A stretch of 64,000 nucleotides of DNA from Minisyncoccota bacterium (lineage in GTDB: Bacteria > Patescibacteriota > Minisyncoccia > Phycocordibacterales > UBA9973): the NCBI GenBank assembly GCA_018062065.1, contig JAGOSX010000001.1, forward strand, positions 31,070-95,069, written 5' to 3'. The stretch's first letter is position 1. The number at the start of each line of letters is the position of its first letter. Position numbers and translations under genes: made by a program. Below the pieces are notes generated by a model, which ran no database searches, was not told the DNA's origin, and worked only from the letters and a program-made list of their open reading frames with translations. Below, piece by piece: positions 1,772 through 56,032 of the stretch.

Positions 1772-1803
1772 CTAGCCCCGTCAGTCGCGACTGACGGGGC
1801 TAG
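1772..1803. repeat. Perfect GC-rich palindrome ctagccccgtcagtcgcgactgacggggctag (family A copy 1), followed by a T-rich tract. Likely doubles as a terminator for the upstream gene
   Basis: Read directly from the sequence. It is a 32-nt perfect inverted repeat in an AT-rich intergenic region. Four related copies occur elsewhere in the window. Confidence 0.6.
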
Positions 1804-1844
1804 TATATATAATTTTATTTTGGTAAAATATTATATATAAATAG

Positions 1845-4313
1845 ATGAAAAAAATTTTTTCAAAAATTTTAATTGCTATCCTAATTTTAGGCTTTTTATT
1901 CGCACCAGTAACTCCAAAAATCGATATTCAAAATCATTTTAGTTTAGTAAAAAATGAAGTATTTGCGGAAGATATTTATTATTACATCATTCTAGCAGTT
2001 GATGGTATTAAATCGGTAGAAAAAACAACATTAAATTTATGCCAAGAAGCTAGAGACGAAAACTTAAAAAGTGGGACTTCTGTAAAAACTCCTTGTTTAA
2101 AAGCAACAAGTCGTGCAGAAATTGATGCCAAAATCGCTGAAATAAAAACAGAAACTACTCAACAAGAAATTACGGAGATTAACAAAACTTATGACGGCGT
2201 TCTTGGTGATAATTTTTTTAATTGTGAAGCTAGTACAATTTTTACAAATTGTTTAGTAGCAGGTCTTTACCATGTATTTTTTAGTTTATCAGCATTTTTA
2301 GCGAGTTTATCAGCAAGAATTTTAGATTACTTTGTATTTTATGCATTGGATAGTGATAGCTATAAAGGTGACTTTATTACACTAGGTTGGGCACTAGTTA
2401 GAGATATCTCTAATATACTTTTTATAATAGCTTTGCTTTATGTTGCAGGTAAAACAGTCTTAGGATTAAATACTTCTAATAATAAAAAGATAATAGGCAT
2501 GGTTATACTTATGGCGCTATTAATTAACTTTAGTTTATTTATAAGTAAAGTGGTGATTGATATTTCAAATATAGTAGCTAGAGTTTTTTATGCAAATATA
2601 GAAAACGTGGATCAGTCTGGTAATCAAAACGTAGCAGGTTATTCAGATGCAGATGGAACTACTGGTAAATCAATAAGTGTTGGACTTGTTGCACAATTTG
2701 ATCCTCAAAAGATTTTTCAAAATAGTGGAATTCCTCAATTAGTAGATGGCACAGTAGGTCCTTTTGCTATTGTTTTAATACTTTCTATTATTTTAATGTT
2801 TTATATGACTTATATGTTTTTATCTGTAGCTTTCGTTTTTATTGGTAGAGTTGCAATGCTTTGGATTTTAATGATTTTTTCTCCTTTAGCTTTTGTGTCA
2901 AATACGGTTCCTGATTTTAAAATACCTAAATTTAATTTTAGAGAATGGAAAAGCGAATTATTTAATCAATCGTTTTTAGCTCCTATATTTGTATTCTTTT
3001 TATACTTAATAATATCCTTTGGAAAATTACCGGTAGTTTCTGATGTTATAGATCCAAATACTTTAAATAATGTGGGAGGAACAGCAACAAATGGTACGTT
3101 AAACACATTTATGAAAATATTTATACCGTTCATTATAATCTTTACTTTAGTAAAAATTGCCAAAGATACAACTATAAAAATGGCAGGGGAGCTAGCATCA
3201 GGTATGAGTAAGTGGGGAACAATATTAGGTGCAGGAGCTTTAACCTTAGGAACCGCAGGGACTGCTTTTCTTGGCAGACAAGTAGCAGGAAGATCTGCGG
3301 CTGCATTAAGTAAAAGAGAAGGTGCAATGGAATATGGTACAGAAAGAGCTAAATATAGAGAGAATTTAGATGCATGGAAAGCTAGTGATAAAAAGACTAG
3401 AGGCGCTAGACCAACGTGGGAACAACACAAGACTGATTATACAGTTAAAACTGGTAATACACTCACAGACAGTTTCTTAACTAAAGTTGGAGGTAGGATT
3501 AATGCGGCACAAATTAGAAATAAGAAAATTGATCATGGTGCTCATGAATACGAAGATATTAAAAAGAAAGCTGGCTTAGAAGGAGTATCAGATTCAAATA
3601 TTAGCGCAGTAGAAGAAAGTAAGATGATTGAATTATTTATTAAAGATAAGAAAAATGATATTCAAAGTGAAATTAGAAGTGGTAATGCAAAAGATCATTC
3701 AGGTAATGCTATAGAAGGAGAAAATGAATTTAATATTAGAAACAGAAAATCTATTGCTGATAAAATAGGCGGAGCTCCAGGAAGTGCAGAAAGAGCGCAA
3801 GCTATTGCTGATGGTGATTTTGATAAAAAAACAAACAATCTAACAGATCAAGGAAGAAAGAAGGTTGATGAAACCCTAAAAATTGAATTTAACAAAGTGT
3901 TAGAAAAAACCACTAAAGAAGTTGGTAAAGAAAAATTTGAGCATTTTAGAACAGAAGCAAGATCAAAAACAAATATCATTGATAGAATAACTGCAAAATC
4001 TAGTTCTGGAAGTTATGATATGACTAAAATTAACTTTGAAGATAAACGAGCAAATATGATAAGTAAAGGAGTACTTGCAACCTTAGGAGTTATTGCATTA
4101 GGATTAAGAACTGGTTTAAAAAATATAAATTTAAATCCAGCAAAAGGCCAAGGTGACATAACAAAAGATTTAGCAAATATAATTAGTACTACTATAAAAG
4201 ATATTGGTAAAAACATAAAAATTGATGTTGGTGGCGGGCATGGTGGAGGTGGTGGACATGACAAAGGTGGACATGATGATCACGGTGGCGGGCATGGTGG
4301 AGGACATCATTAA
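1845..4313 (+). CDS. VirB6/TrbL-like polytopic membrane protein. It has a signal peptide, an N-terminal Cys-containing soluble region, a long K/E-rich C-terminal extension, and a terminal Gly/His-rich tail
   Basis: 822 aa. The N-terminal hydrophobic leader is MKKIFSKILIAILILGFLFA. At least six hydrophobic helices lie between about aa 130 and 440. The C-terminal ~350 aa is hydrophilic. The tail reads GGGHGGGGGHDKGGHDDHGGGHGGGHH. Its position at the head of a VirB4-containing locus supports the call. Confidence 0.45.
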   Translation: MKKIFSKILIAILILGFLFAPVTPKIDIQNHFSLVKNEVFAEDIYYYIILAVDGIKSVEKTTLNLCQEARDENLKSGTSVKTPCLKATSRAEIDAKIAEIKTETTQQEITEINKTYDGVLGDNFFNCEASTIFTNCLVAGLYHVFFSLSAFLASLSARILDYFVFYALDSDSYKGDFITLGWALVRDISNILFIIALLYVAGKTVLGLNTSNNKKIIGMVILMALLINFSLFISKVVIDISNIVARVFYANIENVDQSGNQNVAGYSDADGTTGKSISVGLVAQFDPQKIFQNSGIPQLVDGTVGPFAIVLILSIILMFYMTYMFLSVAFVFIGRVAMLWILMIFSPLAFVSNTVPDFKIPKFNFREWKSELFNQSFLAPIFVFFLYLIISFGKLPVVSDVIDPNTLNNVGGTATNGTLNTFMKIFIPFIIIFTLVKIAKDTTIKMAGELASGMSKWGTILGAGALTLGTAGTAFLGRQVAGRSAAALSKREGAMEYGTERAKYRENLDAWKASDKKTRGARPTWEQHKTDYTVKTGNTLTDSFLTKVGGRINAAQIRNKKIDHGAHEYEDIKKKAGLEGVSDSNISAVEESKMIELFIKDKKNDIQSEIRSGNAKDHSGNAIEGENEFNIRNRKSIADKIGGAPGSAERAQAIADGDFDKKTNNLTDQGRKKVDETLKIEFNKVLEKTTKEVGKEKFEHFRTEARSKTNIIDRITAKSSSGSYDMTKINFEDKRANMISKGVLATLGVIALGLRTGLKNINLNPAKGQGDITKDLANIISTTIKDIGKNIKIDVGGGHGGGGGHDKGGHDDHGGGHGGGHH

Positions 4314-4382
4314 AAATTAGATTTTAATAATAAGTTACTAAATTATAAAAAAGTTTTGGTTTATAAGATTTAAGTAAAATAT

Positions 4383-5800: not shown

Positions 5801-5803
5801 TTT

Positions 5804-6454
5804 ATGGCAATTAATGCAAGACCAACTCAAGAATTCGTCCCAATTAAAGAAATTAGAGACGGTGTAATAGAACTAAAAGACGGCGGGCTACGCGCTATCG
5901 TTTTGGCGAATTCTATTAACTTATCTTTAAAATCAGGAGAAGAACAAAAAGCTATAATTTTACAATTTCAAAATTTTTTAAATACCTTAGATTTTTCAGT
6001 TCAAGTATGTATTGAATCAAGAAGATTAGATATTAGACCATATCTATTATTACTCGAAAATCGAATGAAAATTCAAAATGAACCACTAATGAAACTTCAA
6101 ACCAAAGAATATATGGAATTTATTCGTAATTTTACAGAAAGCGTAAATATTATGACCAAAAGCTTTTTTATTGTTGTACCTTATAGTGAAAATACATTTA
6201 TACCTTCAAATAATAATGTTTTAGATAATTTATTTAAAAAGAAGAGTAATGAAGAAAAAAAATTAGCAGAAAAAATGGATTTTGAGGAAAAAAGATCTCA
6301 ACTTGAGCAAAGAGTAAGTATTATTCAACAAGGATTAAACCGTTGTGGTATCAAATCTGCTCAATTAGGGACAGAAGAAGCGGTTGAGGTGTTTTATAAA
6401 GTCTTTAATCCAGGAGAACTAGAAGGAAAGATAGAACTTGAAGGTCAAAACTAA
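5804..6454 (+). CDS. VirB4/TraC-family ATPase, N-terminal domain fragment (gene split into two ORFs)
   Basis: 216 aa. QEFVPIKEIRDGVIELKDGGLRAIVLANSINLSLKSGEEQKAIILQFQNFLNTLDFSVQVCIESRRLDI matches the characteristic N-terminus of Gram-positive VirB4 proteins (Tn916 Orf16, TcpF and PrgJ type). It terminates at TAA 6452-6454. Confidence 0.55.
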   Translation: MAINARPTQEFVPIKEIRDGVIELKDGGLRAIVLANSINLSLKSGEEQKAIILQFQNFLNTLDFSVQVCIESRRLDIRPYLLLLENRMKIQNEPLMKLQTKEYMEFIRNFTESVNIMTKSFFIVVPYSENTFIPSNNNVLDNLFKKKSNEEKKLAEKMDFEEKRSQLEQRVSIIQQGLNRCGIKSAQLGTEEAVEVFYKVFNPGELEGKIELEGQN

Positions 6455-6519
6455 AAACAAAAACTAGAACTAAATATTTATTTATATTATAATTGATATA
6501 GGTTTTTAATAACTATATT

Positions 6520-12171: not shown

Positions 12172-12969
12172 TTAATTTACCTTATCACTCGCGATTGATG
12201 AGGTTGTAACTAATAATTTACTTTTTTTATTAATATACATTTGTTGCAATCCTCCAAAAATATTACTTGTAGCCCAATAAAGAGCAATTGCACCGGAAAT
12301 ACTATAAGCAATAAATGCTACAACAAAAGGGAAAACGTATTTCATTTGTACATGCATACTTTCACTTAAACTCTCTGCAAAACTAGGCATTTTATTTGGA
12401 TCTTTGTTTTCTGACTTTTTAGGTTTTGGCATAAATGATGCTACGAAGAATTGAGAAAGGCCGGCAATAATAGCTAAAACTAAGCTTTTTTGACTAATAT
12501 CAATAAGTCCCAAGAAAATTGTATTTAAATAGTCTGGTTTTGGTATAAAACTATATAAAACTTCAGGATTAAAATTTAAACCTTTATAAAAAACGTAATA
12601 TAAAGCAAAAATAATAGGTATTTGAATTAAAATAAGCAAACAACCAGAAAAAGGATTGGTGTTGTATTTTTTATACAATTCGAAAGTTAAACGAGCTTGT
12701 TCTTCTTTAGTTTTTCCACTATTTTTAATCTTTTCAAGTTCAGGTTGCATTTCTCTAACTTTTGCTTGACCTTTTAAGGATTTTTGAGAAAGGGGAAATA
12801 ATATAAATTTAACTAAAATAGTAAGTAAAATAACAGCAATACCTAGATCATGAAAAGGTACGACTGATACTAAAAGGGCTAAAAGATTCAAAAAAGGCTC
12901 GTATAAAAAAGTATTCCAAAGATTTAATAACATATTCTCAATTCTATACGAAAATAGCAAAAAAACCAA
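12172..12969 (-). CDS. yidC: Membrane protein insertase YidC (short Gram-positive-type form)
   Basis: 265 aa and polytopic. It shows the conserved YidC core and sits in the origin-proximal operon. Confidence 0.8.
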   Translation of the reverse strand: MVFLLFSYRIENMLLNLWNTFLYEPFLNLLALLVSVVPFHDLGIAVILLTILVKFILFPLSQKSLKGQAKVREMQPELEKIKNSGKTKEEQARLTFELYKKYNTNPFSGCLLILIQIPIIFALYYVFYKGLNFNPEVLYSFIPKPDYLNTIFLGLIDISQKSLVLAIIAGLSQFFVASFMPKPKKSENKDPNKMPSFAESLSESMHVQMKYVFPFVVAFIAYSISGAIALYWATSNIFGGLQQMYINKKSKLLVTTSSIASDKVN

Positions 12970-19327: not shown

Positions 19328-20500
19328 ATGAAGGTGATAATAGATCAAAATAAAGTACAACACTTATTAAGTAAAGGTGTAGAGAATATATTTGTAAAAG
19401 AATCTTTAAAGAATAAACTTCTTTCTGGTAAAAGGCTAAAGGTTTATCTCGGGATTGATCCAACCGGACCAACTCTGCATATGGGTCATACCATACCGAT
19501 GATGAAATTAAAAGAATTTCAAGATTTAGGTCACCAAGTAATACTTTTGATGGGGGACTTTACGGCAATGATAGGAGATCCTACCGACAAAGCTTCTGTG
19601 CGTAAACAATTAACTCACAAGCAGGTCTTAACTAATTTAAAAAATTACAAAAAACAAGCTTCAAAGTTTTTAAATTTTGGAGGAAAAAACCCAGCTTTAA
19701 TTAAATTTAATTCTAAATGGTTAATGAAAATGAATTTTGCTGAAGTTTTAGAATTGTCTTCTAAGATTACAGTTGATCAAATGCTTAAGAGAGATATGTT
19801 TGTTCGTCGTCATGAAGAAGGTAAGCCTATTTTTGGTCACGAATTTTTTTATCCTTTAATGCAAGGTTATGATTCTGTGGCTATGGATGTTGATGTTGAG
19901 GTTGGGGGGAACGATCAAACTTTTAACATGTTAGTTGGTAGAGATTTGATGAGTGAAATAAAAAAGAAAGACAAGTCCGTAATTGCGATGAAATTACTTG
20001 CTGATAATACTGGTAAAAAGATGGGAAAAACTGAAGGGAATATGGTTTCTTTCCAAGATTCCCCTGAAGATATGTTTGGTAAAGTTATGAGTTGGAACGA
20101 TTCTTTAATCCAAGTAGGCTTTGAACTTTGTACTTTCTTGGAAGAAAAAGATTTACCAAATTTAAATGATCCTAAAAACGCTAAAATGCAATTAGCTTTT
20201 GAAATTGTGAAAATTTATCACGGAGAGAAAAAAGCAGAATCTGCAAAAGCAGATTGGGTTTCTAAATTTGAGAAAAAAGAAATTCCAGAAGAATTAATTT
20301 CTATTAAAGGAACAGGCTTATTATTAGATATTTTAGTAGAGAACAAATTAATCCTTTCTAAAAATCAAGCTCGCAGACTTTTTGAAGAAGGAGCGATTTT
20401 AGACCTTATTTCTAAAGAAAAAATTAAAGATATAAAATATGAAGTTAAAAAAGGCAATAAATTCAAAATTGGAAAGAAATTATTTATTGAAATAGTTTAA
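19328..20500 (+). CDS. tyrS: Tyrosyl-tRNA synthetase (class I, with a C-terminal S4-like domain)
   Basis: 390 aa. The HIGH-type motif is GIDPTGPTLHMGH and the KMSKS-type motif is KMGKTEGN. The C-terminal domain LSKNQARRLFEEGAI is S4-like. A bacterial TrpRS is less likely. Confidence 0.7.
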   Translation: MKVIIDQNKVQHLLSKGVENIFVKESLKNKLLSGKRLKVYLGIDPTGPTLHMGHTIPMMKLKEFQDLGHQVILLMGDFTAMIGDPTDKASVRKQLTHKQVLTNLKNYKKQASKFLNFGGKNPALIKFNSKWLMKMNFAEVLELSSKITVDQMLKRDMFVRRHEEGKPIFGHEFFYPLMQGYDSVAMDVDVEVGGNDQTFNMLVGRDLMSEIKKKDKSVIAMKLLADNTGKKMGKTEGNMVSFQDSPEDMFGKVMSWNDSLIQVGFELCTFLEEKDLPNLNDPKNAKMQLAFEIVKIYHGEKKAESAKADWVSKFEKKEIPEELISIKGTGLLLDILVENKLILSKNQARRLFEEGAILDLISKEKIKDIKYEVKKGNKFKIGKKLFIEIV

Positions 20501-20503
20501 ATA

Positions 20504-20530
20504 AAAAACCGCTCAATTGAGCGGTTTTTT
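20504..20530 (+). terminator. Rho-independent terminator after tyrS: aaaaaccgctcaattgagcggtttttt
   Basis: A perfect 8-bp GC-containing stem with a 4-nt loop and a T-tract. Confidence 0.7.
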
Positions 20531-20553
20531 ATTATCCTGTCACTTGTGAGCTA

Positions 20554-20721
20554 CTAGTGAAATCTATCTTCAGGATCGTAGTCATCGTCTTCATCAGCGA
20601 TATGCATTCCTTCCATATCATCGCCTAACAAGTCGTCGTCTAGAAGAGGATCAAAATCATCATGGGCACCCCCATAAAAATCAGATCCAGTTGTATCATC
20701 GTCTTTATCAAATTCGTCCAT
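20554..20721 (-). CDS. Candidate small highly acidic protein (55 aa, 24 D/E): MDEFDKDDDTTGSDFYGGAHDDFDPLLDDDLLGDDMEGMHIADEDDDYDPEDRFH
   Basis: Found by hand translation of the minus strand. The ORF track misses it because it is under 60 aa. A perfect DnaA box (TGTGGATAA, 20832-20840) lies ~110 bp upstream in its promoter region. Confidence 0.3.
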   Translation of the reverse strand: MDEFDKDDDTTGSDFYGGAHDDFDPLLDDDLLGDDMEGMHIADEDDDYDPEDRFH

Positions 20722-20840
20722 TTTTATTTTTAAAATTTATTTTTTAAAACGACCTTATAAAAAATTTATTTTTTAACTATTATAGTTTTATCAAAATCTA
20801 AATTCTAAAGCAAATTATTTTTATTAAATATTGTGGATAA

Positions 20841-21326
20841 CTAGATTTTGTTGTAAGCAAAGGCTGTGAGCGCTATCGCAATAGCATCTAATTCGTCATC
20901 AAAACTTTTACTTTTTTCTTTTGGAAGGTTTATTAGTAACCCAACCATTTTGCGAATTTGTTCTTTGTCCGAAGCCCCGTATCCAGTAATACTACTTTTG
21001 ATTTGCGGGGGAGAAGCTTCAAAGATCTTTAAACTATATTTACGAGCAAGATAAATAATTGCTCCGCGAACTTCGGCTACTTGCATTACCGTTTTTTGAT
21101 TAGTGTTTAGGAATAGAGTTTCGATAGAAAGCATATTAGGTTTGTATTCTTTTATAATTTCTTCAATCTTTTCTCCTAAAATAAGTAATCTTTCATTAAA
21201 GTCTAATTTACTACTGGTTTTAAAGCACTCACTATGAAGTAAGACTTCTTTTCTATCTCCTTTATTTTTCTCTAGTATTGCTATACCTAACCTCTCATAC
21301 CCTGGATCTATACCTAGTATTTTCAT
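20841..21326 (-). CDS. ruvC: Holliday junction resolvase RuvC
   Basis: 161 aa. The N-terminus is MKILGIDPGYERLGIAILEK, and catalytic acidic residues are present. Confidence 0.9.
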   Translation of the reverse strand: MKILGIDPGYERLGIAILEKNKGDRKEVLLHSECFKTSSKLDFNERLLILGEKIEEIIKEYKPNMLSIETLFLNTNQKTVMQVAEVRGAIIYLARKYSLKIFEASPPQIKSSITGYGASDKEQIRKMVGLLINLPKEKSKSFDDELDAIAIALTAFAYNKI

Positions 21327-21328
21327 AA

Positions 21329-22330
21329 TTAATTTTCTTTATTTATTTTCTCAAACCCCAAATGGTTGTAAGCTTTGTCCGTAGCGACGCGACCGCGAGT
21401 AGTTTTCTCTATTAAACCGAGTTGGATTAAATAAGGTTCAATAACTTCCTCGATAGTTTCTTCTTCTTCGCCGAGCGCTGCTGCGATAGTTTTGAGTCCA
21501 ACTGGACCGCCAGAAAACTTATCAATTAATATTTCTAAGAATTTACGATCAGAAGCAGTTAAACCGATTTCGTCTATTGCAAGTAAATTTAGTGCATTTT
21601 TAACTGTGTCTTTGTTTAAGTCTTTTTTATAAACTTGAGCATAATCGCGAACTCTTTTTAGAAAATAATTTGCAGTTCTCGGGGTAAAACGACTTCGACG
21701 TGCTATCTCTAGTATAGCTTCGTCTTCTAATTCTGTGCCGAGTAGTTTGCTTGATCTTTTTATGATTTGAGATAATTCGCTTTCATTATAAAATTCAAGT
21801 CGAAATACTCCTCCTCCAAAACGTGAACGAAGAGGGGAGGAAATCATGGATACTCTCGTAGTTGCTGCAATCATAGTAAAAGGAGGAAGCTCAAGTTGTA
21901 TTGAACGAGCTGAAGGACCTTTACCGATTATGATATCGAGTACTCCTGACTCCATAGCAGGGTAGAGGATTTCTTCTACCATTTTATTCAATCTGTGAAT
22001 TTCATCTATGAATAAAATATCTCCAGGTGAAAGGTTAGTAAGTAGTGAAGCGAGATCTCCAACTTTCTCTATTGCTGGGCCGGAAGTGATTTTGATTTGT
22101 TTACCTGTTTCTTTGGCTATCAAATGAGCAAGAGTAGTTTTACCAAGTCCTGGAGGTCCATAAAAAAGTATGTGCTCTGGAGTATGGCCTCGTTCACGAG
22201 CAGCAGTAAGCAAAATATTGATATTATCTTTGATATGATTTTGACCAATATACTCTAAAAAAGTATTTGGGCGCAGTGCTTGGTCTAAAAAAGACTCTTC
22301 TTTATTCTCTTTTATTTCTTTTTCTTGCAT
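21329..22330 (-). CDS. ruvB: Holliday junction branch-migration ATPase RuvB
   Basis: 333 aa. Walker A is GPPGLGKTTLA. The AAA+ core and the RuvB winged-helix C-terminus are present. Confidence 0.95.
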   Translation of the reverse strand: MQEKEIKENKEESFLDQALRPNTFLEYIGQNHIKDNINILLTAARERGHTPEHILFYGPPGLGKTTLAHLIAKETGKQIKITSGPAIEKVGDLASLLTNLSPGDILFIDEIHRLNKMVEEILYPAMESGVLDIIIGKGPSARSIQLELPPFTMIAATTRVSMISSPLRSRFGGGVFRLEFYNESELSQIIKRSSKLLGTELEDEAILEIARRSRFTPRTANYFLKRVRDYAQVYKKDLNKDTVKNALNLLAIDEIGLTASDRKFLEILIDKFSGGPVGLKTIAAALGEEEETIEEVIEPYLIQLGLIEKTTRGRVATDKAYNHLGFEKINKEN

Positions 22331-22365
22331 TATATTTTAATTTTAACATAGATAAGTTAATAAAG

Positions 22366-22391
22366 TCCCCTGATAAGGGGATTTAGGGGTT
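22366..22391 (-). promoter_or_regulatory. Conserved 27-nt leader motif AACCCCTAAATCCCCTTATCAGGGGAC (family B copy 1), sense orientation ~36 nt upstream of the ruvB ATG
   Basis: The same 27-mer recurs exactly at 25247-25273 and 26126-26152, each time in the 5' leader of the downstream gene. It contains the small hairpin CCCCttatcaGGGG. Confidence 0.4.
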
Positions 22392-22424
22392 GCTCTTTAA
22401 TTTTGAACGTAACTTGACTGGGGC

Positions 22425-22453
22425 TTGACATTACATGCATAGTATGCTATACT
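22425..22453 (+). promoter_or_regulatory. Near-consensus sigma70-type promoter TTGACA-17 nt-TATACT (extended -10 TGcTATACT)
   Basis: TTGACA is at 22425-22430, a 17-nt spacer follows, and TATACT is at 22448-22453. No protein-coding ORF lies downstream; a terminator-like palindrome at 22692 is ~240 nt away. Confidence 0.5.
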
Positions 22454-22459
22454 CTAGGA

Positions 22460-22691
22460 AAGTTATATACAGTTTATTCACAGAGCTTTCAACAACTTTT
22501 GTTTACGGTTGTAAAGCGAAATAGTATAATTATTTTAAGAGGGTGTTAATCTCTAAGCAATCAGCCTTAGGTTCTACATTTCTGATTAGGACGACTTGGT
22601 ATATTTTATATTTCTGGGGCTATCCTATGGCGATATGTTACTTTGTGGGCTAAGCTTACAAAGGATTGTTTAGAGATTAATGCTCTTTTTT
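22460..22691 (+). ncRNA. Candidate non-coding RNA of ~230 nt between a consensus promoter and palindromic terminator(s); class unknown
   Basis: No ORF over 20 codons in either strand. The region is bounded by a textbook promoter and a GC-rich palindrome plus T-tract. I did not recognise tmRNA, RNase P, SRP or 6S signature motifs by eye. Confidence 0.25.
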
Positions 22692-22749
22692 CTTGCCCTG
22701 TCAGTCGCGACTGACAGGGCAAGCCCCGTTACTCGGGAGTGACAGGGTT
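22692..22749. repeat. Family A palindrome (perfect: cttgccctgtcagtcgcgactgacagggcaag) followed by a degenerate second copy (ccccgttactcgggagtgacaggg). It is a convergent terminator between the candidate ncRNA and the LOG gene
   Basis: A 32-nt perfect inverted repeat, related to the copies at 1772, 26094, 41725 and 56007 through the shared core cctgtca-CTCGCGAG/GTCGCGAC-tgacagg. Confidence 0.6.
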
Positions 22750-23387
22750 TATTTAAATTTATTATATCTTTTATAATTTAAACAAAAATCTTTACCTCCA
22801 TTTTTAAAATGAGTATGAACGTCGCTAATCATATCTAAAACTTCTTCTTCGTTTTTTGCATGAAAAACTAAATTAAAATCTCTTTCAGTTAAGTAGTCAG
22901 TTTTTAATGGATTTTTCTTTATCCAAGAAAGTAATCCTCCCCATTGTTCCCCCATAAGTATTATTGGGATATTGCAAATATGATGAACTTGCACAAGTTG
23001 CCAAGTATAAAATAATTCAAGCAAAGTTCCTATTCCGCCCGGCGTTACTATTACCGCATTAGATAAAAGCATAAATTCATCTAATCTTCCTGAAAATCTT
23101 CCAAATTCTTGTTTATAGTCTATTGCTTCGTTAAAACCTTGATGCCAAGGTAGTTTTACTCCAACACCAATAGTGCGAACAGTAGCATTTTTCTTGCCTT
23201 GCTTATGCCCAATACTTGCTGCTTCCATAAGACCTTTACCTCCTCCGGTAACTAGGTCGATTTCCATTTTCGCTAATTCTTTCGCTAAATGTTTTACGCT
23301 TTTATAAATTGGATCACTTTTTTTAATTCTTGCACTACCGAATATTGCTACACGGAAAAATTCCGGATTTTGTTTTTGTATCTTCAT
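22749..23387 (-). CDS. LOG-family (TIGR00730) nucleotide 5'-monophosphate nucleosidase-like protein
   Basis: 212 aa. Motifs GGGKGLMEAAS and PGGIGTLLELFYTW match the LOG PGGxGTxxE signature. Confidence 0.75.
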   Translation of the reverse strand: MKIQKQNPEFFRVAIFGSARIKKSDPIYKSVKHLAKELAKMEIDLVTGGGKGLMEAASIGHKQGKKNATVRTIGVGVKLPWHQGFNEAIDYKQEFGRFSGRLDEFMLLSNAVIVTPGGIGTLLELFYTWQLVQVHHICNIPIILMGEQWGGLLSWIKKNPLKTDYLTERDFNLVFHAKNEEEVLDMISDVHTHFKNGGKDFCLNYKRYNKFK

Positions 23388-23408
23388 ATCTTTAAAAATT
23401 ATTTATAA

Positions 23409-25106
23409 TTATTCTTCGTTTAAGTCTACCACGCTCAGCACTTCTTCAAAAGAGGTGATACCGTTTAATATTTTTACTACCCCATCTTCACGCATCGATA
23501 ATATCCCTTGCTTATTTGCGATTTGTTTTATTTCTCTTTCTGAAGGATTATTAGGCATAATACGCTCTATATTCTCATCGGTTTTAATAGCTTCGAATAT
23601 TCCGATGCGTCCTTTGTAACCTGTATTATTACATTCTTCGCAACCTCCTGCTTCGTATAATTTCAAACTCATATTCATATCTAAGTTGTATTTTTTTAAA
23701 TCTTTACCGTTTTCTTGCATCTTTTCGAGAATTACTTTGATTGTATTTGATTCATTTTCTTTAACCACTTTTTCTTTTTTGCATTTATCACAAAGCTTAC
23801 GTACAAGTCTTTGAGCTATTGATAAGGAAAGCGCAGAAGGCATAATTTTAGGATTTACTTCAAGGTCTGAAAGTCTTGGTATTACTCCAGCCGCATTATT
23901 GGTATGGAGTGTTGAGAAAACTAAGTGTCCAGTAAGAGCAGACTGCACGGCAGTTTTAGCAGTTTCACTATCTCTAATTTCTCCAACCATTATTACGTCT
24001 GGGTCTTGGCGGAGAGCAGCTTTAAGTCCTTCTGCAAAACCGTATTCTTTAGCGTCACTAATTTGAGTTTGAGTTATGCCTTTTAATCTATATTCGACTG
24101 GGTCTTCGATAGTTATGATATTGATTTCACTTGAATATATTTTACGCAAGAACGCATAAAGAGTAGTAGTTTTACCAGATCCGGTAGGTCCTGTTACTAG
24201 GATAAGTCCGTTTGGTTTTGCAATTTCTTTTAATACAATATCATAAAGATAAGAATCCATTCCCATATCTTCGATATTGATTTGAATAGATTTTGGATCA
24301 AGTATTCTCATAACAATAGTTTCTCCGTATGATCCTGGTATAAGCGAAGTACGAATACTTATTTCTGATTCATCTTCCATAATTGCAAATCTTCCGTCTT
24401 GGGCTCCGAGAGAAGTTAATTTCATTCCTGAAAGTAATTTAATGCGAGAGTTAAGTAGATGATAAATATTAGTACTAAAGAATTCTATATCTTGGAGTAC
24501 TCCATCTAAACGCAAGCGCAATTTCGCTCCGTTTTCTTCGGGTTTGATATGAATATCAGAAGCATTAATAGCAATAGCTCCTGCAAGGATAATCTCGAGT
24601 AAGCGAGTAATTTTATGAGTCTTACCGCTTTCCATTTCTTCGTTTAAAGCAGTTTTGATATCTTGCATGCGTTTAATATTTTTTGCAGTATCGCGCAAAA
24701 TCTCAGAAGAAATATCAATTCCACCAATTTTAGAATTTTCAGCCATAGAGAGTTCTTTATACCGATCCCAAACTTTCTCTATACTACCAAGTGAAGTCAT
24801 ATAAAATACAGGTTCTAATTCTTTGCGTTTCATGTCTTCAATTAATTCGTTTTTTAATTCTTCGGTCGGAGTACGGAGTGCAATATAGATTTTCTTACCA
24901 ATAATTTTAAAGGGAGCTACTCCGCGCTCGTGTGCATCGCGTTCGTCTATCGCTCGCAAAGCTTCATTATCTATACCTACCCGGTATAGATCAGCGTAGG
25001 GGAGGTTGTACTTTGTTTCGGCTAGCATAGAAACTAAATCTTCTTCTTCTTTTCTCTTAAGATCTGCTAGTTGTTTATTTTGTTTATCTTCATCAAAGTC
25101 GTGCAT
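23409..25106 (-). CDS. pilB: Type IV pilus assembly ATPase PilB/GspE family
   Basis: 565 aa. Walker A is GPTGSGKTTTLYA. The Asp and His boxes and a C-terminal tetra-Cys motif (CDKC...CEEC) are present. Confidence 0.85.
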   Translation of the reverse strand: MHDFDEDKQNKQLADLKRKEEEDLVSMLAETKYNLPYADLYRVGIDNEALRAIDERDAHERGVAPFKIIGKKIYIALRTPTEELKNELIEDMKRKELEPVFYMTSLGSIEKVWDRYKELSMAENSKIGGIDISSEILRDTAKNIKRMQDIKTALNEEMESGKTHKITRLLEIILAGAIAINASDIHIKPEENGAKLRLRLDGVLQDIEFFSTNIYHLLNSRIKLLSGMKLTSLGAQDGRFAIMEDESEISIRTSLIPGSYGETIVMRILDPKSIQINIEDMGMDSYLYDIVLKEIAKPNGLILVTGPTGSGKTTTLYAFLRKIYSSEINIITIEDPVEYRLKGITQTQISDAKEYGFAEGLKAALRQDPDVIMVGEIRDSETAKTAVQSALTGHLVFSTLHTNNAAGVIPRLSDLEVNPKIMPSALSLSIAQRLVRKLCDKCKKEKVVKENESNTIKVILEKMQENGKDLKKYNLDMNMSLKLYEAGGCEECNNTGYKGRIGIFEAIKTDENIERIMPNNPSEREIKQIANKQGILSMREDGVVKILNGITSFEEVLSVVDLNEE

Positions 25107-25145
25107 ATACCCTTAATTATACAGGATTTTTCAGAGCGTAACCCC

Positions 25146-25174
25146 TTGACTTTGTACTCTAAATATGCTATACT
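25146..25174 (+). promoter_or_regulatory. Near-consensus promoter TTGACT-17 nt-TATACT (extended -10 TGcTATACT) driving the 25314 gene
   Basis: TTGACT is at 25146-25151 and TATACT at 25169-25174. The architecture is almost identical to the promoter at 22425. Confidence 0.5.
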
Positions 25175-25246
25175 ATATAGGTAAAGTGTTCTTTGTAAAA
25201 TCTCATTGATTTTTGGTTATGAAAAAAGTTTTGCGTGGAATTTTAG

Positions 25247-25273
25247 AACCCCTAAATCCCCTTATCAGGGGAC
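25247..25273 (+). promoter_or_regulatory. Family B 27-nt leader motif copy 2 (AACCCCTAAATCCCCTTATCAGGGGAC) in the 5' UTR, ~41 nt upstream of the ATG at 25314
   Basis: An exact 27/27 match to copies 1 and 3. It lies downstream of the predicted transcription start, so it should be transcribed. Confidence 0.4.
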
Positions 25274-25313
25274 TTCTATGTAAAACTTTTTTCATAACTC
25301 TAAAACAAAAATC

Positions 25314-26003
25314 ATGAGAAATATTTTCATAACATTAGCAATTTTCTTTTTTTCTTTCACTTCAATCCAAGCTCAGCCTTGGGCAAAAGACGGTATTTTC
25401 ACAGAAGCAGCCAAAAAAGAACTCCATAGAATATGGGGCACAGAAATGGATTTTTCTTCACCAGAAGAAACAGCTCTCGAAGCTGAAAAAATATACAAGA
25501 AAGGAGAATTTCAAATTTTAAAACTTCAAAACTCTGGAGTAAATCAAAACGGTATAAAAAAACTAGCTGTAGGTAGCTACAAAGTAGTTTATTTGGGTAC
25601 CATTAACGCAACAAAACTTGGAGGACCGGCAGGTTACGTTGTTGAAATTTTCTTAAAAAAAGATTGTAAAAATCTTAATTGGGGGGAATTCATTCCTGAA
25701 AAAAAGGAAGAAAAAAAATACCCTCCAAAAGAGGAGAAAAAATTTATTTCTGGAGATATTATTCTTTACCAGTGGTGTGAAGAATACCATTGGGAAGTAA
25801 CCCAACAGGCCACCTGGTGGCTAGCTGAGGTACGGAAAGAGTATCTAAATGCAGGGTACACAGGTGTGACAACCTCTGATCCAGCACTTGCTGGATCAGA
25901 GGAGGTTGTGCAAAATTGTAGTACACGAAAAGTGTACACATATACACACGACCCGGGGCGACGCCCAATAAGAGACCGCGAGGTTTCAAAAATCTGGAGA
26001 TAA
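25314..26003 (+). CDS. Secreted hypothetical protein. The last ~70 codons (from ~25790) lie in a GC-anomalous, hairpin-rich segment whose coding status is doubtful
   Basis: Signal peptide MRNIFITLAIFFFSFTSIQA. The segment 25790-26000 is ~50% GC against a ~30% background. It contains the perfect hairpin ctgatccagca/tgctggatcag and the hairpin gtacac-gaaaa-gtgtac. Confidence 0.4.
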   Translation: MRNIFITLAIFFFSFTSIQAQPWAKDGIFTEAAKKELHRIWGTEMDFSSPEETALEAEKIYKKGEFQILKLQNSGVNQNGIKKLAVGSYKVVYLGTINATKLGGPAGYVVEIFLKKDCKNLNWGEFIPEKKEEKKYPPKEEKKFISGDIILYQWCEEYHWEVTQQATWWLAEVRKEYLNAGYTGVTTSDPALAGSEEVVQNCSTRKVYTYTHDPGRRPIRDREVSKIWR

Positions 26004-26054
26004 AAGCAAACCCCTAGCTTTTATCTAAATAATGGGTTAGGGGTAAATGAAATA

Positions 26055-26088
26055 AAGCCGTGTGAACTTCGAGTTCTACGGCTTTTTT
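26055..26088 (+). terminator. Rho-independent terminator aagccgt-gtgaacttcgagttct-acggctttttt
   Basis: A 7-bp GC-containing stem followed by a T6 tract. Confidence 0.6.
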
Positions 26089-26093
26089 AATTT

Positions 26094-26119
26094 ATCCTGT
26101 CGCTCGCGAGTGACAGGAT
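26094..26119. repeat. Family A palindrome copy 3: atcctgtcgctcgcgagtgacaggat, directly abutting family B copy 3
   Basis: Inverted repeat with one G·U-type mismatch. The core CTCGCGAG is shared with the copies at 41725 and 56007. Confidence 0.6.
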
Positions 26120-26125
26120 TTTTAA

Positions 26126-26152
26126 AACCCCTAAATCCCCTTATCAGGGGAC
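26126..26152 (+). promoter_or_regulatory. Family B 27-nt leader motif copy 3, ~148 nt upstream of tsaE-polA
   Basis: Exact 27-mer AACCCCTAAATCCCCTTATCAGGGGAC. Confidence 0.4.
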
Positions 26153-26299
26153 TTTAAATACTCAAGACTTGTGTTATTATTTGAATAATGAATCCCGTAG
26201 TAGAAAATGGCATTAAAAATAATATAATAAATATGGATAAATCAATAAATTCAAATTTTATAAGTTTTAATAAAATAAGTGGTTTTGCTTTTTTAAGCG

Positions 26300-26761: not shown

Positions 26762-26776
26762 TGCTATAATTAGTGA

Positions 26777-31468: not shown

Positions 31469-31563
31469 TTAATCCCAACTTACCGCACTTGACCTGCCTT
31501 GATTCCTTATGGAGTCTGGTAGGTCTTTTTATTTTATAAAATTATTTGTGCTATATTATATCT

Positions 31564-33717
31564 ATGAGCGAGAAAGTCTTTAAATTAAAAAGTAAATTTG
31601 AGCCTGCGGGAGATCAACCGAAGGCTATTTTAGAATTAAATGAAGGACTTAAAAAAGGCTTAAAAAAGCAGACTTTACTCGGAGCGACAGGGACCGGTAA
31701 GACTTTTACGATGGCTAACGTGATTTTAGAATATAATAAGCCGACTTTAGTCATAGCTCACAACAAAACCCTAGCCGCTCAACTCGCTACCGAGTTCAAA
31801 GAATTTTTCCCAGATGCTGCAGTGCATTATTTCGTTTCATATTATGATTATTATCAACCGGAAGCTTATATGCCGGCGTCAGATACTTTTATTGAAAAAG
31901 ATGCTCAGATAAATAAAGAAATAGATAGGCTTCGTCACGCTACAACTCAAGCATTACTCACTCGTAAAGACGTTATTATAGTCGCATCGGTATCTTGTAT
32001 TTACGGCTTAGGAAGCCCTGAAGAATACGAGAAAACTAATTTAAAATTAAATATCGGTACCAAATTAGATCGGGCAAGCTTAATGAAAAGATTAATCAGT
32101 ATGCATTTTGAGAGGACTAATGCAGATTTATCTTCTGGAAATTTTAGAGTTGTTGGACCGAAAATAGATTTGATGCCTGTTTCTGAAACCTTTATGTATT
32201 CTATCGAATTTTCAGGTACAGCTATTTCTCGGATTTTAAAAATTGATCCAGTATCTTCGACCATTTTAAAAGAATATTCCAAAGACGATACTGAAAGTAT
32301 TTATATTTTCCCAGCTAAACATTTTATAACCGAAGATGAAAAAACAAAAGTTGCAATTAAAAATATTGAAAAAGAATTAAAAACTCAAATCAAGAAATTT
32401 GAAAAAGAAGGCAAGCTTCTTGAAGCTGAAAGAATTAAAAGACGTACGAATTACGATCTCGCTATGATTAGGGAAGTTGGATATTGCTCTGGTATTGAAA
32501 ATTATTCTCGTCATTTATCAGGTAAAGCTGAAGGAGAAGCCCCGGAAACTTTACTGTCGTATTTTCCTCATAAAAAATTAAGAAATCCTGAAGAGAATGT
32601 CCCAGATTTCTTGACGATTATTGATGAATCGCACCAAACTTTACCTCAAATTCGAGGTATGTTTGCAGGGGATAAATCTCGTAAAACTACTTTAGTGGAA
32701 TACGGTTTTCGTTTACCTAGCGCGAAAGATAATCGCCCTCTTCGTTATGAAGAATTTGAAAGTAGAATTGGCGAAGTGGTTTACGTTTCTGCTACTCCAG
32801 GAGATGAAGAGCGAGAAAAAAGCGAAAAAATAGTTGAGCAAATTATTCGTCCTACAGGTTTACTTGATCCTGAAATATTAGTAAAACCAGTTACTGCTGA
32901 TAAAGATAAACTTGGACAAATTCAAGATTTTATTAAAGAAACCGAATTTACAATCAAAAGAGGTTTTAGAGTATTAGCTACAACTTTGACTAAAAAGATG
33001 GCTGAAGATTTAACTTCTTATCTTAAAGATAAAAGTATTAAAGCAGAATACTTGCATTCTGATGTAAAGACTTTGGATAGAATAAAAATAATTACAGAAT
33101 TTCGTAAGGGTAAATTTGATGTATTAGTCGGAGTGAACTTGCTTCGTGAAGGTTTAGATTTACCGGAAGTAGCGTTAATCGGTATTTTAGATGCAGATAA
33201 AGAAGGTTTTCTTCGTAGTGAAACAGCGTTAATCCAAATCATCGGACGCGCCGCTCGTAATAGTGAAGGTAGAGTTATTCTTTATGCAGATAGAATTACC
33301 GACTCTTTAGAAAATGCTATCAAAGAAACTACTCGTCGTCGCAATATTCAAATAGCTTATAACAAAAAATACGGAATTACTCCGAAAACTATTCTGAAAA
33401 ACATCAAAGATATTACCGAAGATATGGAGTCTAATCATAGTCGAGCGGTAAATGCAGAGCTTGATCTTGATTTAAACCTTTTTAAAACTGCTTATAAAAA
33501 AGAATTAAAGAAAGACGGAAGTAAAATTACTCGTGAAAAAGGGAAAATAGAAGTTAAACTTAAAATGTCTGATGATGAAAGGAAAGATTTAGTTTATGAA
33601 AAAATAATTAAAATTAAAGAACGCGAAATGAATAAAGCTGTCAAAGAACTCGATTTTGAAACTGCTGCAATACTAAGAGATGAGATAGGAGTACTAAAAG
33701 CTCGGCTAGAAAAATAA
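31564..33717 (+). CDS. uvrB: Excinuclease ABC subunit B
   Basis: Start set at the ATG at 31564 (MSEKVF...). The TTG at 31546 is unlikely because it overlaps the extended -10 TGTGCTATATTAT. Walker A is GATGTGKT and there is a helicase C domain. The C-terminal UvrB/UvrC interaction domain (...ILRDEIGVLKARLEK) is present. Confidence 0.95.
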   Translation: MSEKVFKLKSKFEPAGDQPKAILELNEGLKKGLKKQTLLGATGTGKTFTMANVILEYNKPTLVIAHNKTLAAQLATEFKEFFPDAAVHYFVSYYDYYQPEAYMPASDTFIEKDAQINKEIDRLRHATTQALLTRKDVIIVASVSCIYGLGSPEEYEKTNLKLNIGTKLDRASLMKRLISMHFERTNADLSSGNFRVVGPKIDLMPVSETFMYSIEFSGTAISRILKIDPVSSTILKEYSKDDTESIYIFPAKHFITEDEKTKVAIKNIEKELKTQIKKFEKEGKLLEAERIKRRTNYDLAMIREVGYCSGIENYSRHLSGKAEGEAPETLLSYFPHKKLRNPEENVPDFLTIIDESHQTLPQIRGMFAGDKSRKTTLVEYGFRLPSAKDNRPLRYEEFESRIGEVVYVSATPGDEEREKSEKIVEQIIRPTGLLDPEILVKPVTADKDKLGQIQDFIKETEFTIKRGFRVLATTLTKKMAEDLTSYLKDKSIKAEYLHSDVKTLDRIKIITEFRKGKFDVLVGVNLLREGLDLPEVALIGILDADKEGFLRSETALIQIIGRAARNSEGRVILYADRITDSLENAIKETTRRRNIQIAYNKKYGITPKTILKNIKDITEDMESNHSRAVNAELDLDLNLFKTAYKKELKKDGSKITREKGKIEVKLKMSDDERKDLVYEKIIKIKEREMNKAVKELDFETAAILRDEIGVLKARLEK
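33578..33717 (+). repeat. Direct repeat 1 (uvrB 3' end, ~140 bp); its diverged partner is at 35381-35521
   Basis: Aligned by eye, ~85% nt identity overall and ~92% over the first 110 bp. The encoded peptides are nearly identical (KAVKELDFETAAILRDEIGVLKARLEK vs RAVKELDFETAAILRDEIGVLRVRMEK). Confidence 0.7.
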
Positions 33718-54367: not shown

Positions 54368-54376
54368 TTATCCACA
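54368..54376. promoter_or_regulatory. Isolated perfect DnaA box TTATCCACA between fur and nrdB
   Basis: An exact 9-mer. In E. coli, nrdAB expression is DnaA-regulated through boxes in its promoter. Confidence 0.35.
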
Positions 54377-54385
54377 TTTTAATTT

Positions 54386-54811
54386 TTATTTTCTTTCGCA
54401 ACTCTCGCAAATACCGAACAAATCAAAGGAATGGTGAGTGATTTTTTGGAATTTTTTTGATTTTTTAAGTGCATTTAACACTAATTTTTCGCTATCGCAA
54501 CCAGTAAAATCTTCAACTGTATTGCATTTTATACAAATCATATGATGATGATCATCATGCTCGTCTATTAATTCATATTCTGCCTCTCTTTTACCCGTAT
54601 CTACCTTTTTAATTAAGCCTTTTTCTAAAAAACTATCTAAAGTACGATAAATCGTGACTTGATCCAGTTTATTCTTCTTTAATTTTTCAAAAATAGTATT
54701 AGCACTGAGGGGAGTTTTAGTTTTAGATAGAAAATCTAAGAGCAAAAGACGAACTTCAGTCTTTTTCAATTGAGCTTTATTTAGTATTTGTTCAAAATTG
54801 TTTGCCTTCAT
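54386..54811 (-). CDS. fur: Fur-family metal-responsive transcriptional regulator
   Basis: 141 aa. The winged-helix region is VTIYRTLDSF. The metal sites are HHHMICIKC...CDSE...CESC. Confidence 0.8.
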   Translation of the reverse strand: MKANNFEQILNKAQLKKTEVRLLLLDFLSKTKTPLSANTIFEKLKKNKLDQVTIYRTLDSFLEKGLIKKVDTGKREAEYELIDEHDDHHHMICIKCNTVEDFTGCDSEKLVLNALKKSKKFQKITHHSFDLFGICESCERK

Positions 54812-55924
54812 TTATTTCTCAAAAGTTATTCGTACTAATTCAGGAGTATTGAAAAGCCTAGAAGGTACGCTAGCCGTACCGACTCCTGAAGTAGTTAAGA
54901 CTTGCAAGTCTTGATAAGGATGAAGTCCGTAAGTATATTCTTTGTATATAGAGTAAACGATATAATTGAGAGGCCAGAATTGTCCACGATGAGTATGACC
55001 TGAGACTTGGAGATCAATTTTATTTTGATTTGCTACGCTAAGAGCGGTAGGAGCGTGATTGATAAGTATAGTAAATTTATTCTCGTCTATGTTTAAAGAT
55101 TTAAGAGTATTGTCTACGGAAGCTAAATTTGCGGTATTATTTTCTCCTCGATTTTCTCTATATTTTACTCCTACTATATCAATATCTCCATAACTAACCT
55201 TTTTATCTTCGAGGGTTACTACTCCCGCATTAGCAATAGATTCTAAAAATCCACGATAATCTCCGTATTCTTCGTGATTTCCAGGAGCCATAAAGACAGG
55301 GTATTTAGCTGTTAATTTTTTCCAACTTTCAGTTATGAGAGTTGTGTCATTTTTCGGTCCATCATAAAAGTCTCCTCCGTGCAAAACGAAATCCGGATTA
55401 AGAGAAATAATTTTTTTTACCACTTTATCAGAAAATCCTTTATGATTGATTTTTCCAAAGTGAGTATCAGCTACTAGTATAGCTTTTTTGCCTACGAGAC
55501 TTTCAGGAACCTTTGGATCTTTGATAGTATAATCAACAACTTTAATAAAACGAGCTTGTATATATCCAAAAGTTGCTAAGCCTAAAGATAGTGCTAAAAA
55601 TATATAAGAGAAATAATACGGAATATTAACTTTAAAAACAAAACCTAAAATATAAATCGTACCTAAAGCTAAAGCCCCAAAGAATAAATAAAGTCCGTAT
55701 CCAGCTATCATTTGCATTACTCGGTGAAAGATAGAAGGTAGTAAACCGCTAAAGCCAAGTAGCATGCTTAAAGCAAAAAGTAGGGGAATTAATAAAAATA
55801 TAAAAAATACTAGTTTATTTTGCTCCGGACTTAGTCTTAATCCGTAACCGTAAACTTTAGTATTTAAATACGAAATACCTATTAAAAAACTTGCAATCAA
55901 TATGCCGAAAAATATCTTTATCAT
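54812..55924 (-). CDS. Membrane-anchored calcineurin-like metallophosphoesterase
   Basis: 370 aa. The N-terminal TM helices are followed by the MPE motifs LVADTHFG, HGGDFYDG and APGNHE. Confidence 0.75.
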   Translation of the reverse strand: MIKIFFGILIASFLIGISYLNTKVYGYGLRLSPEQNKLVFFIFLLIPLLFALSMLLGFSGLLPSIFHRVMQMIAGYGLYLFFGALALGTIYILGFVFKVNIPYYFSYIFLALSLGLATFGYIQARFIKVVDYTIKDPKVPESLVGKKAILVADTHFGKINHKGFSDKVVKKIISLNPDFVLHGGDFYDGPKNDTTLITESWKKLTAKYPVFMAPGNHEEYGDYRGFLESIANAGVVTLEDKKVSYGDIDIVGVKYRENRGENNTANLASVDNTLKSLNIDENKFTILINHAPTALSVANQNKIDLQVSGHTHRGQFWPLNYIVYSIYKEYTYGLHPYQDLQVLTTSGVGTASVPSRLFNTPELVRITFEK

Positions 55925-56006
55925 GCTTAAATTATAGCATATTGTAAAAATTTACTTTTTAGTATAGTCTAAGGGTAGAGATAGTCGTATCTTTATTAGT
56001 TAATTT

Positions 56007-56032
56007 ATCCTGTCTCTCGCGAGTGACGGGAT
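56007..56032. repeat. Family A palindrome copy 5: atcctgtctctcgcgagtgacgggat, in a divergent intergenic region
   Basis: An inverted repeat with wobble positions. The CTCGCGAG core is shared. Confidence 0.5.

Follow-up and report, generated by a model that had tools for sequence, protein, structure and literature searches.

A dispersed palindromic hairpin family of Candidate Phyla Radiation genomes and its linkage to a gene for a small GIY-YIG protein

We analyzed a 64,000-nt stretch of the genome of a Minisyncoccota bacterium (assembly GCA_018062065.1, contig JAGOSX010000001.1, positions 31,070 to 95,069 of the forward strand), hereafter the window, in which short GC-rich palindromes recur in AT-rich DNA (G+C ~31%). 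These palindromes belong to a family of hairpin-forming repeats that is real and widespread in the Candidate Phyla Radiation (CPR, or Patescibacteria), and the hairpin is tightly and reciprocally linked to a gene encoding a small GIY-YIG protein. The copies are insertions that differ between related species. In single-stranded form, the element forms a GC-rich stem of 11-16 bp capped with a CGCG loop. The repeats of the window are probably solo, non-autonomous copies of a 24-34-nt palindromic element that is the cis partner of the CPR GIY-YIG nuclease.

A palindromic repeat family had been claimed in a preliminary description of this DNA, and the claim holds. The search pattern CCYGTCNNTCGCGANNGACRGG, derived from the core given in that description and allowed up to three mismatches, has six matches in the window (at 1777, 22697, 22725 with 2 mismatches, 26096, 41727, and 56009), whereas none of 100 dinucleotide-preserving shuffles contains any match. 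The 22-mer CCYGTCNSTCGCGASTGACRGG is present six times in the 64-kb window, with 0 occurrences expected by chance. The extents of the copies listed below, obtained by direct reading and with a repeat finder, include complementary flanks beyond the pattern matches. The degenerate copy was added by the repeat finder and is absent from the earlier list, and the half-copy previously placed at ~20531-20550 was recovered as ATCCTGTCACTTGTGAG in a spacer that is 11 nt longer than in the relative L220 (loci fetched for comparison carry L numbers). The family-1 hairpin copies of the window are:

1772-1803, copy 1, a perfect 32-nt palindrome, CTAGCCCCGTCAGTCGCGACTGACGGGGCTAG (inverted-repeat calls and pattern match)
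22692-22723, copy 2a, the first member of a tandem pair, CTTGCCCTGTCAGTCGCGACTGACAGGGCAAG (inverted repeat)
22720-22751, copy 2b, decayed, CCCGTTACTCGGGAGTGACAGG, with 2 mismatches (repeat finder)
26094-26119, copy 3, a 26-nt palindrome, ATCCTGTCGCTCGCGAGTGACAGGAT (inverted repeat)
41722-41753, copy 4, a 32-nt insertion, plus-strand sequence GTTCCCCTGTCACTCGCGAGTGACGGGGTTGA (DNA alignment with relatives)
56004-56035, copy 5, TTTATCCTGTCTCTCGCGAGTGACGGGATTTA, with an imperfect stem (inverted repeat)
12172-12206, a degenerate or divergent copy that contains ACCTTATCACTCGCGATTGATGAGGT (repeat finder, 71% identical to the reference copy)
20534-20552, a truncated copy with the left arm ATCCTGTCAC followed by TTGTGAG (inverted repeat and comparison with a relative)

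The family is not private to the source genome and is common to many CPR lineages. When CCYGTCNSTCGCGASTGACRGG was compared with one genome per species from 185,579 species, it matched at least 113 loci, with ~4 chance matches expected by our own estimate. Among the 80 loci listed, at least 67 are labeled CPR/Patescibacteria, and the CPR labels among the matches listed include Moranbacteria, Nomurabacteria, Paceibacterota, Magasanikbacteria, Uhrbacteria, Jacksonbacteria, Minisyncoccia, Parcubacteria, and 'Saccharibacteria'; several metagenome-assembled genomes (MAGs) supply 3-5 loci each among these matches. Three of the matches listed fall in GC-rich genomes (Trebonia, Halorubrum, and an actinomycete) and are likely due to chance, and a few AT-rich MAGs with other labels, e.g., L061, share the tRNA-Trp cassette described below. 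A phage origin was rejected, as 2.9 million viral contigs contain no match to the 22-mer.

The copies share the core CCYGTC-NS-TCGCGA-SN-GACRGG, with a nearly invariant centre, TCGCGA. Usually, exactly two further base pairs prolong the palindrome at each end; they are complementary yet variable and fall into five classes (AC..GT, AA..TT, CA..TG, AT..AT, and GC..GC). Position 8/15 is occupied by a C-G pair in 80 copies and by a G-C pair in 60, and is unpaired in 3 of 149. In the related loci, 114 of 134 copies are intergenic, compared with 20% of random positions.

A repetitive extragenic palindromic (REP)-associated transposase of the RAYT/TnpA-REP type had been suggested as the partner of the repeats, and this was not borne out: in a Pfam scan of 150 hairpin-adjacent open reading frames (ORFs), GIY-YIG is the only enriched family, with nine members against four in the next family. 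The Y1/RAYT transposase is not among the families matched by two or more of these ORFs, and no Y1/RAYT gene was seen in the window, the search having covered the window and the fetched loci. The product of the linked ORF is a protein of 83 aa with GIY-YIG as its single domain (Pfam PF01541, E = 1e-11 to 1e-15), in which Y5, Y18, R28, H32, and E63, the canonical catalytic set, are invariant, and the nuclease looks intact as judged from its residues. Pfam assigns this protein to the generic GIY-YIG family only and NCBIfam has no specific family for it; among solved structures, the UPF0213 proteins 1ZG2 (E = 3e-10) and 1YWL (2e-7) are nearest, followed by Slx1.

The linkage was found from both sides. 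In loci seeded with the hairpin, 13 of 18 GIY-YIG ORFs lie within 150 nt of a hairpin (1.3 expected; P = 8e-12). The reciprocal test was a metagenome search seeded with the alignment of the GIY-YIG protein; in the resulting loci, 352 kb in total, 20 of 23 hairpins precede the ORF start by no more than 150 nt (P = 7e-27). A hairpin precedes the GIY-YIG gene in 17 of 80 protein-seeded loci overall and in all nine homologs that have at least 58% identity and upstream sequence, at a distance of 6-76 nt; hairpins on both sides of the ORF occur in L005, L069, L074, and L092. Distant homologs (42-53% identity) mostly have other upstream motifs, such as a variant centred on TTCGCGAA, a double hairpin in the anticodon loop of tRNA-Glu, and a C-rich motif, and the clades of the protein coincide with the upstream hairpin types A, B, C, and D.

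The gene typically resides in a cassette consisting of a tRNA-Trp pseudogene disrupted by one or more hairpins, the GIY-YIG ORF, and an intact tRNA-Trp gene 5-25 nt past the stop codon. Loci of the Moranbacteria type likewise have the hairpin within a truncated tRNA-Trp, then the small ORF, and then the intact tRNA-Trp. In L005, pseudogene and intact tRNA-Trp are unlike in sequence, thus the pseudogene seems to travel with the cassette. One may speculate that a cassette carrying the only working tRNA-Trp would be hard to lose. The tRNA-Trp/GIY-YIG cassette is found at:

L037, 5100-5560 (minus strand)
L005, 180-690
L092, 4000-4500
L069, 700-1260
L118-L134

Further small GIY-YIG genes were observed in other settings. 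One distant clade follows the 5' half of tRNA-Glu, with CACCC..GGGTGACCACCC..GGGTGG in the anticodon loop, and other distant genes are inserted in 16S/23S rRNA or RNase P RNA genes. The loci of the distant small GIY-YIG genes are:

L129, L130, L137, L141, L176, L185, L186; L140, L142, L143, L147, L148, L157, L171

The insertion behavior of the repeats was read from relatives with 68-89% protein identity, which provided the empty sites, since the public contigs of the source species all carry the same copies. At the 3' end of ruvA, DNA alignment with the empty sites of L213, L216, and L217 shows a clean 32-nt insertion in the window. The window RuvA is identical to MBP9802751.1, a protein from a 'Candidatus Paceibacterota/Pacebacteria' MAG, and ends in ...ALGQPRHSRVTGEQ, whereas its five closest homologs (75-89% identity, 187-188 aa) end in ...ALGKK. 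Copy 4 has swapped the native end of ruvA (KK and the stop) for QPRHSRVTGEQ and a new stop codon, which bears out the preliminary description of a repeat-encoded gene end, with the last 11 codons and the stop supplied by the copy. Upstream of tsaE, L219 has the hairpin, with two substitutions, at the position that it occupies in the window, whereas the sites of L218 and L220 are empty; relative to L218, the window has gained the 26-nt palindrome plus two extra T. The tandem pair 2a/2b is missing after the conserved noncoding RNA (ncRNA) candidate in L220, and the 20-kb syntenic stretch of L220 contains 0 copies, compared with three full copies and one truncated copy in the matching part of the window.

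The tRNA-Trp pseudogenes of other CPR genomes give a second view of insertion, since each can be read against the intact tRNA-Trp of the same locus, located a few hundred bases away. The inserts are 24-26-nt palindromes bounded by direct repeats of 2-5 bp. The direct repeat is GTCTC in the anticodon loop of L121, L037, and L092, and of L122, where the hairpin is inserted twice in tandem; it is CC in L196 and GTA, in the D-loop, in L159. More hairpin insertions were seen in the D-loops and T-arms of tRNA-Trp pseudogenes, and direct repeats of 2-5 bp also occur at the tsaE site. The reading of these inserts as tRNA introns was rejected, as the interrupted copies show truncation or decay and are in every case followed by an intact tRNA-Trp.

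The surroundings of the window copies are varied. Copy 1 lies 20 nt after a terminator with a stem and a T-tract (1712-1751) and 41 nt before the ATG at 1845; the tandem pair 2a/2b directly follows the T-run closing the ncRNA candidate, and copy 2b borders on a SLOG/lysine-decarboxylase-like gene (22749-23387, minus strand) at its stop codon. Copy 3 is located between a terminator (~26060-26088) and a conserved family-2 motif upstream of tsaE-polA, and copy 4 at the 3' end of ruvA (41717-42307, minus strand), 12 nt upstream of the fpg start codon. Copy 5 occupies the spacer of two divergent genes, one encoding a metallophosphoesterase (54812-55924, minus strand) and the other a protein with a peptidoglycan-binding domain (56046-57005, plus strand). 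The degenerate copy at 12172-12206 provides yidC (12172-12969, minus strand) with its final codons and its stop, just before a jag/R3H gene (the two neighbors match Pfam 60KD_IMP and R3H), and the truncated copy directly follows the tyrS terminator (20500-20533). For annotation, translated repeat sequence accounts for the unusual C-terminal ends of RuvA and YidC in this genome. When folded as single-stranded DNA (ssDNA), copy 1 reaches -18.3 kcal/mol (z-score -8.2) and copy 5 -5.4 kcal/mol, the degenerate and the truncated copies reach only -3.9 and -3.8 kcal/mol, respectively, and the full stem of copy 2b is not formed. These energies look like a decay series rather than a uniformly maintained structure. 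No Rfam family covers the hairpins at gathering thresholds, and permissive E-values gave chance microRNA/snoRNA matches only.

We propose that the element spreads with the help of the linked nuclease. By analogy with the Ssn nucleases compared below, we infer that the CPR protein binds and cleaves the hairpin, is specific for single strands, and contributes the chemistry of insertion. The nuclease would bind the folded hairpin in ssDNA, either a replication/repair intermediate or incoming transforming DNA, and would nick beside it. Repair or insertion dependent on this nick could then spread the hairpin into AT-rich spacers by existing stem-loops, such as terminators and tRNA loops, where the copies would subsequently decay by mutation. 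The window copies are passengers that were tolerated in spacers behind terminators or between cistrons and at the very 3' ends of ruvA and yidC.

Several points weigh against this explanation. The linkage is known from other CPR genomes, and the 64-kb window itself contains no GIY-YIG gene or remnant, as tblastn and profile searches of the window gave the GIY-YIG domain of UvrC only, at noise level. GIY-YIG enzymes hydrolyze DNA and form no covalent intermediates; because of this, the insertion step is one for which we know of no mechanism with a GIY-YIG enzyme. The direct repeats vary in length (2-5 bp), are inseparable from the palindrome termini, and none is evident at ruvA. Shared inheritance of a linked cassette would by itself make protein clades and hairpin types co-vary, and the compensatory changes in the palindrome fit recognition of duplex DNA by a dimer equally well as a hairpin. 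Finally, the CPR hairpin is nearly symmetric, unlike the oriented NTS repeat of Neisseria.

A wider proposal is more tentative, and we rate it as possible, with doubt prevailing. The 26-nt hairpin and the 83-aa GIY-YIG protein may form a minimal selfish or domesticated pair kept across much of the CPR, in which the nuclease recognizes the folded ssDNA hairpin, seeds new copies, and anchors itself between a hairpin-inactivated and the only intact tRNA-Trp; its hairpins could mark or restrict incoming ssDNA like NTS and SsnA in Neisseria. Such marking would be relevant to CPR, which are thought to depend on DNA uptake. A functional pairing of hairpin and nuclease would explain a recurrent GC-rich feature of AT-rich, streamlined CPR genomes, would supply strain-level population genetics with natural markers of recent insertion, and would point to very small candidate site-specific ssDNA nucleases with a defined 26-nt target.

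Among the alternatives, it is conceivable, and in our view unlikely, that another, unseen enzyme or errors of replication and repair spread the hairpin and that the GIY-YIG cassette homes to hairpins or tRNA-Trp as a landing pad. That most copies are solo would fit, some insertion sequences are known to target REPs, and the distant GIY-YIG homologs in tRNA-Glu, 16S/23S rRNA, and RNase P RNA genes lack the hairpin and look homing-like. GIY-YIG ORFs have been reported within non-intron insertions of CPR rRNA genes (PMC11270868). However, no other candidate gene is enriched beside the hairpins; moreover, the hairpins pile up in the pseudogene next to the nuclease gene, including the two tandem insertions at one GTCTC site, and the type of hairpin tracks the clade of the protein.

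The preliminary description had favored a role as terminators or stabilizing hairpins, and several observations make the terminator unlikely as the primary role. A run of four T within 14 nt downstream accompanies only 35 of 134 copies (26%), no T-run directly follows the stem of window copies 1, 3, 4, and 5, and a terminator scan of 20000-27000 called none of the three family-1 copies located there terminator-like. Copies 1 and 3 and the truncated copy stand directly behind canonical terminators, and relatives do without copies at the ruvA, tsaE, and ncRNA sites; any effect on transcript ends is at most secondary. The broader reading, in which the hairpins are primarily RNA elements (intrinsic terminators or 3'-end stabilizers) that resemble each other through selection for a very stable stem, accommodates the location of copies between genes or at 3' ends, the A- and T-runs that flank copies in L001, L035, L077, and L102 in the manner of bidirectional terminators, and the position of the tandem pair (22692-22751) between convergent transcripts and before TTTATTT. 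Nevertheless, selection for stability alone leaves 22 nucleotides conserved across CPR, including the loop, unexplained, and neither the decay of copies to the low folding energies given above nor the hairpins inside tRNA pseudogenes agree with it; we consider this reading quite improbable.

It is very unlikely that a dimeric regulator or nucleoid protein conserved in CPR uses the palindrome as its operator in duplex DNA, e.g., for the autoregulation of the GIY-YIG gene and for the control of a regulon: the perfect 22-bp dyad with its invariant centre and dyad-preserving symmetric changes, the site 6-76 nt upstream of the GIY-YIG start codon, and the window sites 12-41 nt upstream of fpg, the peptidoglycan-binding-protein gene, and the gene for an 822-aa protein would suit an operator, yet the weakness of this reading is that solo copies have mutually unrelated neighbor genes, with no family except GIY-YIG enriched, and that the orthologous promoters of close relatives lack the site, and copies at 3' ends, in tandem, and within tRNA pseudogenes, as well as outer pairs that vary and remain complementary, are not expected of it. 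A LexA-type or other operator (CTGT-N12-ACAG), considered for the sites near ruvA, ruvB, and fpg, was rejected on the same grounds of unrelated neighbors and relatives without sites.

Two further features adjoin the hairpin copies. The ncRNA candidate that precedes copy 2a spans ~240-270 nt between ruvB and the SLOG gene (window 22425-22697, plus strand; L220 ~6230-6500). Its promoter is near consensus (TTGACA, 17 nt, and TATACT at 22425-22453), its 3' end is GCTCTTTTTT, and it has no match to an Rfam family. Nearly every aligned column is invariant in comparison with a relative whose RuvA is just 75% identical, whereas the flanking spacer diverges. The family-2 repeat, CCCCTAAATCCCCTTATCAGGGGAC, is distinct from the palindrome family, though one of its copies abuts copy 3. 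Its copies (0 expected in the window) are always oriented with the downstream gene and lie 35-150 nt before ruvB, a 229-aa ORF, and tsaE-polA:

22365-22389 (minus strand), family-2 repeat
25249-25273 (plus strand), family-2 repeat
26128-26152 (plus strand), family-2 repeat

This repeat is kept upstream of tsaE in three related species (L220, 15328-15352; L218 and L219 upstream of tsaE) and, in one relative, also precedes uvrB; it could serve DNA-repair genes as an operator or promoter element. Two public contigs of the source species begin at the family-2 repeat beside copy 3, and repeats appear to coincide with assembly breaks.

The window has several other features. A tRNA-Val region (63491-63536, 63587-63660, and 63760-63778) contains a partial 5' duplicate 73 nt upstream, and the 3' end of the tRNA (GAATCCTGTATCGCCCACA) recurs after a GC-rich insert of ~100 nt, an arrangement that looks like the footprint of a small integration at a tRNA gene. 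A free-standing LAGLIDADG_3 ORF of homing-endonuclease type (59058-59753, minus strand) adjoins tRNA-Ser (58962-59047), and public contigs of the source species tend to break near it. A 139-nt direct repeat (33578-33716 and 35382-35520), the copies of which are 86% identical and 1804 nt apart, spans the 3' ends of a 723-aa ORF (31546-33717) and a 137-aa ORF (35108-35521). Highly repetitive coding modules occupy 1-1712 and 4223-4303; those at the left edge consist of Cys/Gly/Asn-rich units of 40-80 nt, and the 822-aa protein ends in a Gly/His-rich repeat.

Among the known classes of elements, intrinsic terminators resemble the CPR element as GC-rich stem-loops downstream of genes; the latter, however, has a conserved sequence including the loop, mostly lacks a T-tract, and stands beside genuine terminators in the window. 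Rickettsia palindromic elements and miniature inverted-repeat transposable elements (MITEs; Correia, RUP, and ERIC) are also small palindromic insertions that may be translated in gene ends, as here in ruvA and yidC, and their presence varies among related genomes. Those elements are roughly 100-150 nt long, with terminal inverted repeats around an internal segment and a DDE-type parent transposon, whereas the CPR element has 24-34 nt and neither such inverted repeats nor such a parent.

The preliminary comparison with REPs stands in part. Like REPs and bacterial interspersed mosaic elements (BIMEs), the CPR repeats are short, GC-rich, imperfect palindromes with many dispersed intergenic copies (six and two remnants per 64 kb in the window), which form hairpins, behave as insertions, appear in lineage-specific bursts and occasionally in tandem, and have a single-copy partner gene flanked by the repeats, which in CPR is the dedicated nuclease gene of other genomes. 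The RAYT partner does not stand: the CPR partner is a GIY-YIG hydrolase, unlike the HUH/Y1 transposase of REPs. In REPs, the 5' foot of the palindrome bears a conserved tetranucleotide of the GT[AG]G type, whereas the CPR palindrome has no GTAG-type tetranucleotide at the foot of the stem and is flanked by AC, AA, CA, AT, or GC. In addition, REPs are typically species- or genus-specific, and the CPR sequence is common to many lineages of a superphylum.

The known system most similar to the CPR pair is that of the Ssn nuclease and its NTS/SRM hairpins, i.e., SsnA and the NTS/dRS3 repeats of Neisseria. The SsnA protein of Neisseria meningitidis, 94 aa long with a single GIY-YIG domain, belongs to the CDD family cd10448; it binds the NTS hairpin repeat solely as ssDNA and cuts a few nucleotides upstream of it; mutation of Y6, Y17, or E64 abolished cleavage (PMC11893778). 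NTS-like SRM repeats flank ssnA homologs in several phyla, on one side of the gene in 71% and on both sides in 42% of cases, and the parallel with REP and RAYT was drawn by Chenal et al. (2025) themselves (PMC11893778). Both systems combine a small single-domain GIY-YIG protein (83 aa in CPR and 94 in SsnA) with a dispersed 20-50-nt hairpin-forming repeat that flanks the nuclease gene, and in both the solo intergenic copies far outnumber the gene and the repeat variants differ between nuclease lineages. Moreover, the catalytic Tyr, Tyr, and Glu of the CPR protein occupy positions matching Y6, Y17, and E64 of SsnA.

The two systems also differ. The SRM pattern HGTCWYN(0-2)YYVSBRHN(0-5)WNVSBRGN(0-2)RNCYNB matches 0 of 131 CPR hairpins (with 12-nt flanks, on both strands) and has 0 matches in the window. 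The CPR motif is a near-perfect dyad without an oriented 5' flank and has GTCA[C/G] within both arms, its gene usually has a hairpin upstream only, in the tRNA-Trp pseudogene/gene cassette, and the nearest solved relatives of its protein are the UPF0213 proteins, with Slx1 next. No plasmid homologs of the GIY-YIG protein were found by tblastn when bona fide Ssn/SRM pairs were sought. CPR/Patescibacteria are not mentioned in Chenal et al. (2025; PMC11893778), and the CPR papers that mention GIY-YIG (PMC11270868 and PMC12455944) do not mention hairpins. The CPR motif thus escapes the SRM pattern as published, and it has a new, symmetric architecture. A functional pairing would extend the recently described Ssn-hairpin partnership to the CPR/Patescibacteria, a very large group mostly known from uncultured MAGs.

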